Source of the DNA: an uncultured Verrucomicrobiae bacterium
GTDB lineage: Bacteria > Chlamydiota > Chlamydiia > Chlamydiales > Rhabdochlamydiaceae
Direction: 5' to 3'
Assembly (NCBI GenBank): GCA_963818965.1
Contig: CAWFUG010000003.1
Span: forward strand, 1 to 64,000
Length of the DNA stretch: 64,000 bases
Shown here: in pieces, positions 49,836-52,951 of the stretch
Layout of the letters: every line of letters starts with the position of its first letter
Position numbering within the stretch: position 1 is the stretch's first letter
The notes under the pieces: model-generated
Told to the model about the DNA's origin: nothing
What the model saw: only the letters and a program-made list of their open reading frames with translations
Databases searched by the model: none
Program-made: the position numbers and the translations under genes

Positions 49836-52800
49836 GACAACACCTCGATCAAGGGATGAAAGGTCAGTTGTAGGCTTCTGTTCCAAAAGTCTAAATGCTC
49901 GATCAATTCTTCTAAAGCGCCACGCTGCTGGAGGTAGATGATGTAAGGATCTTCTTCGTAATGCGCTTGAAATGCCTTCGAGACCTCTTGGGGCGATTGT
50001 GTCAAGATGGACTTGGCCCAAAGGGGCATGAGAGGCGAGGGAATTTGCTTGGCCAGGAAATAATACTCTAAATAGTTTCCTAAGAGTTTTTTGGGATCTT
50101 CTACAGGGAGATCCCAAGCGACGCCCTCTTTAGTGAGGAGCAGCTGAGCGACATCGGGGTAGAGACAGCGGTAGGCGAGATAGAGGGGCCAGGCCTGTAT
50201 GGCACTTTTCCAGTCTGTTTCCCCATGGAAGAGAAGTCCTTTGTCAGAGACATCAGAGAGCGTGCCTATGAGAGAGATGGGACCAAACGCGGTGGGAATT
50301 TCTAAAGGGGGGAAGAATTTTTTCCCCTCGATTTCATGCGGTTTGCGGAGGGGAGTCCACTCGACAGCATAAACAGCGCCGCATTGAAACCTCTCGAGAT
50401 GGGTCGAGAGGGCGTCCATCTCTTCCTGTAACCCTCTTAAGGCGATGTCTTGGAAGATCCCTTGGGGCAGTTTGCCTTTGGCAAGGGCATCATCGAGTGT
50501 TTGGGCTTTAGACTTTTTTAAAGAGGTCTTGCGCAAAAGTCCTTTTTGCAAATAAGAGAGGATGAATTGGTTTTCTTCCTTTGAGACTTCTTCTTTTAAA
50601 GAGAGGTTTAAGACTTTTTGGAAGTAAAAAGAGAGGGGATGGCGCGCGAATTTTCTCAGGTCCTTTAAGTCGACGACGTGTTCTGCAGACGGAAGGTTAC
50701 CCTCGACAGGGAAAAACCGGGAACGATTTTCTTTTCCCTTCTGGAACGAGGGACAGCGCATGGGGGGGTGGTCGTAGCGGGTTATTTTTGTGTATTGCGC
50801 CAGCTCGTCGATGAGAAGGGAGGGAGATTGTGCGTGCGCATCTTCTGCAGAGACCCTCTCGTAGCTGAGCCATAGATAATCTTTGGCGTGCAAGAGGAGA
50901 TTTAAAAAAGCGAATCGATCTTCATCGGAGCGCTGAGGGCCTTCCTGTGGCATCAGACAAAGAGAGCTGGGTGATTCTCTCCGTGGAAAGGCGGTCTCGT
51001 TCAGTCCCAAACAGACGATGATCCGGTGGGGAGAAATTTTCGCCCCATCTAGATGCGTGAAGGTGATTCGATTGAGGTCTCGGTTGTGTTTTTTCCCCGT
51101 TTTTTTTGTTGCGGTATGGCGCAACACGCGCGAAAAACTCTCAAAACTAAAGATGGGTTCCTTCAAATGCGCTAGATCCCTTTCCAACCCTTTAATCTCC
51201 TGGAAAAACAGATCTTTTTCTAAAAGAGTGGGAAAATATTTTTGCAGCAATTTTAAGCAAAAACAGACCCAAGCGCTTCCGCTCCGCTTTTCACTCAAAT
51301 GAGCAAGATCCGCTTGTATTTCTGAAAAAAGAGTGAGAAAACGGTTGAAGAGATCGATGTCGGTTAAAGCGAGCACTCCTTCCACTAGGGCACAACCCAA
51401 GAGAAGCCGTTCGATCCCCGCCTCCCAGCTATTGACATTCCCCTGCAATCCTTCGTGTACTTCGGCAGATTCAAACCATCGGCGCAGCTGGCTGATCTCT
51501 TCAGAAGAGAACGTTTGCATCTGTACTAAGCAGCAAAACACAGCAGTCAGGCTGTAGTTATTCTGGGGCAAGTCGATCAGATCCAAAAATCCGCGCGCCA
51601 CAGGACTAACGTGCGAGAGCTCCAATCCATCGATACAATAACTAAAGGGACCCTGTCCGAAGACCATTTCGATGTAGGGGGTATAGCAAGAGAGATCGGG
51701 GCTCAACACCAATACGTCCCTAGGTTGGTAGGTGCTCTCCTGAAACAAGGCGATTAATCGATCGAAGAGGACTTCTACCTCTCTTTCCTTAGAAATGCTG
51801 CTGTGCACTTGAATCGAATCATCCTCGATCCCCGCTTCGAGCGGGGAGAGGGTGAGAAGAGAGCTCCTCAGTGCATCGAGGAGATTTTTTGGGGAATGGG
51901 CGCGATAGTCATCGCTCTCCACCCAGGAAAGCTGGGCTACATTTTTGAGATGGAGCCGCCCCAATTTTCCCCAATTTCTCAAGAGGGGATGGTCCTCTTC
52001 TGCCATTGCTTCGAGTTGTTCTAGGCTCGCCGTCTTTACTCCCGATTTTTTTAATTTGAATTGAAGATGGGAAAGTTCTTTTTGCGAGAGAAAGTCTTCC
52101 CAAAAATGCTCTGAAGCAGAGTGTTGGAAGAGGCGAGCGCCGAGAGAAAAAAAGAACTGGAGGTGACAAAAAGAGAGGTAGGAAAACCCAAAGAGAGCTA
52201 ATTTTCCCACAAACTGAGAGCGTGTTTTTAAAATCTCTAAGGGGTAAGAAAAAGGAGAGTGTTCTGCGAAGACTTCTCTCCACAGCCACTTTTGAAAGTC
52301 CTCTTTGGGGCTCTTGAGCCAATTTTCTAAAAATTCTGTCCCATAGAGCCCATAGCGGTTAAAAAGAAGAGCGATCTCATCGCTCAATTGGGCTGTTCTC
52401 TTTTGCGACGCGCTGTGTTGGAGGTACTCGATGAGGGAAAGGTTTTGGTCAGAGACAGGAAGCTCGCAGAGCTTTTCTTCGATGGTGAGCGACAAAGCGA
52501 GGAAAGAGGGGATGGTTTTAAAATGATGTTCCGTTGCAAGCAGGTAAGTAACAGCTTGAGGCAGGGAAAGGATCTGCACACCCGCTGCAATTTGTAAGTT
52601 CTCCGCTTCGAGAAACCTTTGCATTAAAAAGTCTTTTACCTTCTCATCGGGCACGACCACGAGCCGTTGTTCAAAAACTTTATACCCGACGCGATTGAAA
52701 AGTTGGCCATTGGACCCGCGCGAAAACTCCCGGGATTGAGTTGCCGAAGAGGGGGGTTGTATTTCTTCAATACTACCCCCCTCTTCGGCAATCTCAATCG

Positions 52801-52951
52801 CGGGGTTTTGGCGCGGTCCAATGGCCAACTTTTCAGTCGCGTCGGGTATAGCTTCCTCAAAAAATAAAAAATCGATGAGTCTTTCTGCTAAGACATCCCA
52901 ATCGTTACTGAATAGAGCGGGGATCGAATAATTCTCGCAGACATTTTTCAT
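49832..52951 (-). CDS. recC: Exodeoxyribonuclease V gamma subunit, with a 56-aa palindromic insertion near the N-terminus
   Basis: FSN..L, HPLLRNWGKLGR, DDSIQVH..REVEVL, PRDVLVLSPD, CLGLNE..FPR, DRFAFL..A, FARHP; first gene of recCBD. Confidence 0.92.
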   Translation of the reverse strand: MKNVCENYSIPALFSNDWDVLAERLIDFLFFEEAIPDATEKLAIGPRQNPAIEIAEEGGSIEEIQPPSSATQSREFSRGSNGQLFNRVGYKVFEQRLVVVPDEKVKDFLMQRFLEAENLQIAAGVQILSLPQAVTYLLATEHHFKTIPSFLALSLTIEEKLCELPVSDQNLSLIEYLQHSASQKRTAQLSDEIALLFNRYGLYGTEFLENWLKSPKEDFQKWLWREVFAEHSPFSYPLEILKTRSQFVGKLALFGFSYLSFCHLQFFFSLGARLFQHSASEHFWEDFLSQKELSHLQFKLKKSGVKTASLEQLEAMAEEDHPLLRNWGKLGRLHLKNVAQLSWVESDDYRAHSPKNLLDALRSSLLTLSPLEAGIEDDSIQVHSSISKEREVEVLFDRLIALFQESTYQPRDVLVLSPDLSCYTPYIEMVFGQGPFSYCIDGLELSHVSPVARGFLDLIDLPQNNYSLTAVFCCLVQMQTFSSEEISQLRRWFESAEVHEGLQGNVNSWEAGIERLLLGCALVEGVLALTDIDLFNRFLTLFSEIQADLAHLSEKRSGSAWVCFCLKLLQKYFPTLLEKDLFFQEIKGLERDLAHLKEPIFSFESFSRVLRHTATKKTGKKHNRDLNRITFTHLDGAKISPHRIIVCLGLNETAFPRRESPSSLCLMPQEGPQRSDEDRFAFLNLLLHAKDYLWLSYERVSAEDAHAQSPSLLIDELAQYTKITRYDHPPMRCPSFQKGKENRSRFFPVEGNLPSAEHVVDLKDLRKFARHPLSFYFQKVLNLSLKEEVSKEENQFILSYLQKGLLRKTSLKKSKAQTLDDALAKGKLPQGIFQDIALRGLQEEMDALSTHLERFQCGAVYAVEWTPLRKPHEIEGKKFFPPLEIPTAFGPISLIGTLSDVSDKGLLFHGETDWKSAIQAWPLYLAYRCLYPDVAQLLLTKEGVAWDLPVEDPKKLLGNYLEYYFLAKQIPSPLMPLWAKSILTQSPQEVSKAFQAHYEEDPYIIYLQQRGALEELIEHLDFWNRSLQLTFHPLIEVLS
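52681..52850. mobile_element. 170-bp palindromic element, copy C, inserted in frame in recC
   Basis: TATACCCGACGCGATTGAAAAGTTGGCCATTGGACC...GGTCCAATGGCCAACTTTTCAGTCGCGTCGGGTATA; central TTGTATTTCTTCAATACTA. Confidence 0.9.

Follow-up and report, generated by a model that had tools for sequence, protein, structure and literature searches.

When a long palindrome sits inside the coding sequence of a DNA-repair gene, is the gene broken, or has its protein gained a segment? The question arises for recC in a 64,000-nt stretch of contig CAWFUG010000003.1 (assembly GCA_963818965.1; hereafter the window) from an uncultured bacterium of the chlamydial family Rhabdochlamydiaceae, where a 170-nt palindromic element lies near the 5′ end of the gene. 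An initial annotation had seen here an in-frame palindrome adding 56 stop-free residues to RecC and had proposed a route to new protein segments like that of the Rickettsia palindromic elements (RPEs). We place a probability of about 0.8 on a recent insertion of a sequence resembling a MITE (a miniature transposable element with inverted repeats), with the frame kept and, likely, a full-length RecC that carries an extra loop. The DNA-level parts of the earlier proposal hold; its claim that new protein segments are created can be kept in conditional form, as something that the translated sequence suggests may happen.

The element opens TATACCCGACG and closes CGTCGGGTATA. Its outer arms (52681–52716 and 52815–52850, 36 nt) are 97% complementary and its inner arms (52716–52763 and 52769–52816, 48 nt) 77% complementary; RNA of the coding strand folds as one long hairpin of −142.6 kcal/mol, compared with −55.5 ± 4.3 for shuffled sequences (n = 200, z = −20.4), none of which folded as well. 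On the coding strand the junctions read GAA GC[T ATA ... TAT A]AA GTT, exactly the codon reading first proposed, and the net gain to recC is 168 nt, that is, the 170-nt element less one TA. The resulting peptide (IPDATEKL...GGSIEEIQPP...FNRVGY) is free of stops and stands between ...LFFEEA and KVFEQRLVVVP...; the favoured frame encodes an acidic product rich in Pro, Gly and Ser. Compared with longer proteins, the 56-residue peptide gave one match, to the M3 peptidase of the same genome (P0002), and further negatives from this comparison are weak evidence. A plasmid search returned no match.

The host gene is RecC, the gamma subunit of exodeoxyribonuclease V, by its domains, its fold and its recBCD context. 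Pfam places Exonuc_V_gamma at residues 91–366 (entered at profile position 26) and RecC_C at 759–981; the TIGR01450 recC model matches with E 4.5e-84 and a score of 283, under its equivalog cut-off of 582.9, as expected because the lineage is divergent. A RecC family profile finds E. coli RecC (1w36_C) with E 2.7e-141 and aligns from chain residue 3, and the best Foldseek matches to our recC model are RecC chains of RecBCD complexes (8b1t_C and 1w36). The 34 residues upstream of the element are true RecC sequence: S15, N16, L21 and L29 are nearly invariant in an alignment of 25 of 29 orthologues (four short or contig-truncated sequences left out). Removing the element restores a RecC-like N terminus, as the initial annotation had it.

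RecC is present in 36 of the 41 genomes searched (the window's own counted), and from the related genomes we extracted 29 orthologous open reading frames (ORFs) and aligned them with MAFFT. All 29 hold 0–4 residues across the 56 insert columns, the gap that had been predicted, and none shares the segment without the palindrome; a genome of the same genus (G001), for example, reads ...SNSLENLAERMINALYFPDLMQRPFEKRLVVVP at its N terminus. Metagenomes bring the comparison closer. Two contigs, one each from runs X2 and X4 of two different studies, show 2 differences in 103 nt from window positions 52855–52957, and past this match, read by hand in the recC frame, they continue ...FFEAPQAFEKRLV, a RecC N terminus without the insert. 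The span from GAG to CGG in this allele is nine codons, equal to the window less 168 nt, with about seven base differences in four codons at the insertion point (52852–52866; EEAKV versus EAPQA). The element also turns up, with 7 differences in 167 nt, on a contig from run X3, where the flank is a different one. These comparisons cover the contigs of four metagenome DNA runs, each with at most 0.12 of the words sampled from this genome, and no contig among them spans the recC element. On the aligned sequences, the insert is foreign to RecC, with filled and empty sites in homologous loci.

An AlphaFold model of the insert-bearing protein, built on the orthologue alignment, has a mean predicted local distance difference test (pLDDT) score of 82. 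Residues 34–92 fall below 50 and show no regular structure except a short helix at 40–43, while the flanking elements (strand 10–15, helix 18–31 and strand 95–100) are modelled well, with a pLDDT of ~89–90 in the blocks of 10 residues within 11–30 and 101–110. As predicted here, the insert forms a disordered loop that separates the first helix of the RecC N-terminal domain from its second strand; structure prediction was among the checks that the initial annotation had suggested.

The recC copy belongs to a large family. A similarity search of the 2.24-Mb genome with the element gave 67 matches, and an nhmmer profile of 11 full copies found 92 loci, spread over 9 of the genome's 12 contigs. 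Identity to four sister copies is 94–96%, which makes the recC insertion young. Against these four closest sisters it shows three differences in the left arm, two of them mirrored by complementary changes in the right arm, and the palindrome is kept; a different master copy or hairpin-templated correction could account for the mirroring. The 42 near-full copies span 151–178 nt (23 of 167 nt, 8 of 170 nt), and in 31 of them subtracting 2 from the length leaves a number divisible by 3. Canonical copies all begin TATAC and finish GTATA, and arm complementarity is 21–25 of 25 in most copies. Stops are depleted: the mean number of open frames per copy is 2.33 out of 6, compared with 0.54 for palindromes shuffled as mirror images, and copies outside long ORFs still average 1.92. 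Whole-codon length and stop depletion are thus traits of the family and not just of its genic members. The recC copy has 3 open frames, a number reached by 1.7% of 5000 shuffles. The second copy in the window, of the 167-nt subfamily, was rightly described as intergenic with a frame cognate to that of the recC insert; its neighbours are an aminotransferase ORF on one side and a DinG-like ORF on the other, and translation in one of its frames gives ...EKGASIEEIQAPFSIVESRGFDALKFAIPDGAQY, a peptide that includes GASIEEIQAP. About 20 loci match the terminal ~40 nt only (profile positions 125–170 or 1–50) and could be solo ends, remnants or the ends of another element with the same terminal repeat.

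Is recC alone in staying open through such a copy? At 24 of the 92 loci a stop-to-stop ORF of at least 200 codons stays open through the match. We scanned 19 of these ORFs against Pfam, leaving out recC and four with only end fragments of the element, and 13 of the 19 have family matches. Clear internal in-frame copies lie in aroA, rlmD, menC, the linker of an msrA–msrB fusion and a leucine-rich repeat protein, and the in-frame hosts also include several hypothetical ORFs. The AroA (TIGR01356, 418.8 bits) and RlmD (TIGR00479, 425.2 bits) matches are each split into two stretches by the in-frame copy; in orthologues the two pieces lie 6–15 nt apart in their own DNA, compared with 55–58 residues apart in this genome. 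An M3 oligoendopeptidase has the same layout as recC, its family profile being matched only from position 27, at residue 92, right after the element. Orthologues of recC, aroA and rlmD all lack the insert, so that it is lineage-specific in all three genes compared in this way.

The family extends beyond this genome. It occurs in four further genera of the host's taxonomic family (G010, G017, G020 and G023; E ≤1e-6), with one further copy in G020 inside a 775-codon ORF. No copy was found in G001, a fragmented genome assembly from the host's own genus. A 21-nt degenerate core motif, searched among genomes of 185,579 species, hit 27 loci; the nhmmer profile confirmed 23, most on contigs titled Rhabdochlamydiaceae, Candidatus Rhabdochlamydia, Chlamydiae, Parachlamydiales or Parachlamydiaceae, and the four unconfirmed loci belong to other taxa. 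An ORF of more than 150 codons is open through the element at 7 of the 23 confirmed loci. In public metagenome-assembled genomes (MAGs) titled Chlamydiae or Rhabdochlamydiaceae, the in-frame hosts include carB (carbamoyl-phosphate synthase large chain, with the insert at 406–454, between domains), MutL, TsaE and a biotin/lipoate ligase family protein, and several of these foreign copies share the recC insert's frame (...GLRQSPGIEIVEDGGSIA.IQPPSSTTQSRELS...). The search for similar inserts in other conserved proteins, proposed at the outset, has in this way been answered both within the genome (aroA, rlmD, menC) and in other chlamydial MAGs. Profile matches were also seen in contigs titled Acidobacteriota (L103, 111 bits) and Anaerolineales (L119, four short tandem-like matches), which may be mis-binned or may reflect a wider distribution.

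These observations are best explained by a non-autonomous MITE-like palindrome of 166 nt plus a duplicated TA that would have landed at a TA between recC codons 34 and 35. Its net gain would come in whole codons (168 nt here, 165 nt for the more abundant subfamily of 167 nt). Given a suitable phase and orientation, it would leave a host gene open because of this whole-codon size and its stop-depleted sequence. The most likely outcome would be a full-length RecC with a disordered, acidic, Pro/Gly/Ser-rich surface loop, as in the Rickettsia palindromic elements. The family has the traits of MITEs in being short, multicopy and dispersed with terminal inverted repeats, and mobilization in trans fits its TA-flanked inverted-repeat ends, dispersed copies, filled and empty sites and lack of transposase coding capacity. 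Duplication of a TA target is typical of IS630/Tc1-mariner elements. Here TA stands at both ends of all canonical copies, where it could also belong to the repeat itself, no identical empty site being seen; the frames of recC, aroA and rlmD require a net insert of length minus 2. TA target duplication and spread by transposition are inferences, and so are translation through the insert and a retained RecC function.

Several points weigh against this account. No transposase of the DDE_3 (IS630-type) family was found in the assembly, which is 87.85% complete, by a search aimed at DDE_3 only, and the mobilizing enzyme, like the TA duplication, is for that reason a presumption. The TA target is not visible in the X2/X4 allele, because the bases around the site differ. 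The insertion is young and 3 of the 6 phase and orientation combinations of the recC copy are open by construction, so that selection can hardly be read from the intact frame. In the mRNA, an 80-bp stem that is nearly perfect, ~100 nt past the start, could block ribosomes or be cut by RNase III, which the genome encodes, and a search of public sequencing runs gave no RNA run containing the locus among those listed. Nor is the element always tolerated, as two other copies indicate. A copy of 169 nt, each of whose six frames is closed by a stop, splits a histidine-phosphatase (His_Phos_1) gene (G000:C2:97350–97518; L129 651–819), leaving an upstream ORF that covers profile positions 1–101 and a downstream one that covers 114–149 (weak, E 0.006), and looks like a disruptive insertion. 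The second lies in sulP, which changes frame right after its copy (G000:C9:100348–100514; L128 949–1115): the ORF that leads into the element accounts for Sulfate_transp profile positions 1–236 and runs on for 95 codons without SulP similarity, and the rest of the gene (profile 273–378 plus STAS) is in another frame that begins at the right end of the element, by a CCCC/TTTTT run, the shift being either genuine or an error of assembly at a homopolymer. Since other copies break genes, the open frame of the young recC copy is, by itself, weak evidence of function. Genic copies number roughly 9–14 open against 2–3 broken, counts that are too few to weigh and are confounded, genic copies being recognized partly by their open frame.

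The same facts speak for the reading in which recC has suffered a recent damaging hit, its open frame being luck and the gene a null or strong hypomorph. The hairpin might halt translation, be cleaved by RNase III or cause termination polar on recB and recD, or the loop might disrupt RecBCD assembly; the hairpin is extremely stable, and in a copy this young decay would not yet show. We regard such damage as unlikely. In the model the insertion falls within a loop and interrupts no secondary-structure element. A simple promoter and terminator scan placed no terminator at the element; its two calls, a promoter-like site within the element and a terminator-like site at another place, do not exceed what shuffled sequences give. 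Copies that have diverged further are also seen in aroA and rlmD. The domains on either side of these copies still pass the NCBIfam cut-offs, which suggests that inserts can persist in functional-looking genes.

A restart downstream of the element, which would turn the 34 codons and the element into a leader and yield an N-terminally truncated RecC, was raised by the initial annotation on the ground that recC and its divergent neighbour start only about 20 bp apart. The distance is 21 nt (recC ATG at 52951, first ATG of the neighbour at 52973, with 52952–52972 between and a TTG at 52964), which puts the promoter of each gene inside the other or farther off, an unusual promoter and leader layout, and an in-frame start, the next after the element, does exist at M110. 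Starting there, however, would delete strand 10–15, helix 18–31 and strand 95–100 of the modelled fold, and residues 10–31 and 95–100 can be aligned to every orthologue and, from residue 3 on, to E. coli RecC; we consider a restart highly improbable. Removal of the element from the transcript in the manner of an intron, or an assembly artefact, has the perfect hairpin as the sole point in its favour and is rejected, since Rfam gives only weak generic hairpin matches with none above the gathering score, the 92 dispersed copies have common termini and related copies occur in independent public assemblies.

Beyond the recent, frame-keeping insertion preferred for recC, a broader possibility, which we hold tentatively and rate somewhat below even odds, is that a protein-colonizing transposon lineage runs across Rhabdochlamydiaceae-like chlamydiae, shaped family-wide so that genic insertions survive and convergent with RPEs. 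The shaping would lie in a length of 3n + 2 with TA duplication, in stop-free frames and in a hydrophilic frame of the form GxSIxEIQxP. Such a lineage would continually seed disordered surface loops in core enzymes, here the RecBCD repair complex, and some of these loops may have been co-opted.

Table 1. Coordinates in the window of the element, its host gene and the neighbouring features, with the evidence for each.
Feature	Position	Strand	Evidence
Palindromic MITE-like element, 170 nt, TATACCC...GGGTATA, TA at each end	52681–52850	.	Repeat arms, RNA fold, sister copies
Inserted codons (56), RecC residues 35–90	52682–52849	−	Translation, orthologue gap, pLDDT
recC codons 1–34, genuine RecC N terminus (strand 10–15, helix 18–31)	52850–52951	−	Orthologues, profile, model
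recC ORF, 1039 codons, intact, ATG	49832–52951	−	Pfam, TIGR01450, Foldseek
recB ORF (longest ORF)	46557–50117	−	TIGR00609, E 1.9e-161
recD ORF, last of the recC–recB–recD run	44872–46560	−	TIGR01447, 358.2 bits, above the cut-off of 310.15
Divergent major facilitator superfamily (MFS) gene, LplT-like lysophospholipid transporter/acyltransferase N-terminal part	52964–54703	+	ORF and family match
Second copy of the element (167-nt subfamily), intergenic	38938–39104	.	Profile search

The operon around the insertion is intact, with recC, recB and recD all open (Table 1); the true start of recB is probably near the recC stop. Elsewhere in the window are GspF-like and GspD-like type II secretion genes (10355–15531), a rad18-like, RING-containing ORF of 933 residues (995–3796) and an 869-residue ORF with LIC20035-type adhesin repeats (4073–6682), and the genome encodes three full TLC nucleotide transporters, which together with the titles of the contigs bearing related copies point to an environmental chlamydia, probably of the Rhabdochlamydiaceae. 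The phylum marker Chlam_OMP6 gave no match, an uninformative result since the control genomes gave none either.

How does the chlamydial family stand beside known systems? In its make-up it resembles the TA-targeting MITEs, such as the Correia elements of Neisseria and derivatives of IS630/Tc1-mariner, which have TATA... inverted repeats, a flanking TA, a length of 100–170 nt and a hairpin in the transcript; the chlamydial element matches them in its ends, flanking TA, size and hairpin. Correia elements have mostly been described as regulators in intergenic regions and as targets of RNase III. The chlamydial family differs from TA-targeting MITEs in that no cognate IS630-type (DDE_3) transposase was found for it.

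In its behaviour it resembles RPEs. These are short palindromic repeats of about 105–150 nt (PMC3184786, table; PMC10969869) that lie in frame in many housekeeping genes, encode a conserved peptide of some tens of residues (PMC10969869) and occupy sites that fit the protein fold (Ogata et al. 2000, 2002, as summarised in PMC10969869). The two systems share a palindromic family, an obligate intracellular host, in-frame positions in many unrelated genes, a conserved encoded peptide of some tens of residues and fold-compatible sites. Their hosts differ, being Chlamydiota for the one and Alphaproteobacteria (Rickettsia) for the other, and the chlamydial element, 167–170 nt long, has TA at both ends, well-marked terminal inverted repeats and a stem of 80 bp that is nearly perfect. 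We set the family apart from RPEs by its host, the comparison being one of behaviour and not of sequence. Other intragenic repeats include the Bordetella BRE (about 9 genes with internal inserts), pneumococcal BOX/RUP and ERIC (PMC3184786; PMC10969869). They too are small, non-autonomous repeats with open frames fused to host ORFs internally or at the ends; unlike the chlamydial family, they belong to other sequence families and to free-living or facultative hosts. Among the repeats covered in the available text of PMC3184786 and PMC10969869 there is no Chlamydiae example, and full-text searches, which leave subscription-only literature uncovered, found no such element described in Chlamydiae, in agreement with the initial annotation.

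The element is a MITE-like sequence that behaves as RPEs do, in another phylum. At a practical level, gene calls in chlamydial MAGs are inflated or split by its copies, and these ought to be masked or annotated. As another system of this kind, one that has young copies and for which metagenomes supply empty-site alleles, it offers a view of how proteins bear insertions of 55–56 residues, and it lets one ask how an 80-bp mRNA hairpin gets translated and whether inserts gain function. Colonization of housekeeping genes by in-frame palindromes is best known from Rickettsia; the chlamydial family, unrelated to RPEs in appearance and with transposon-like ends, indicates more than one origin of this behaviour among obligate intracellular bacteria.

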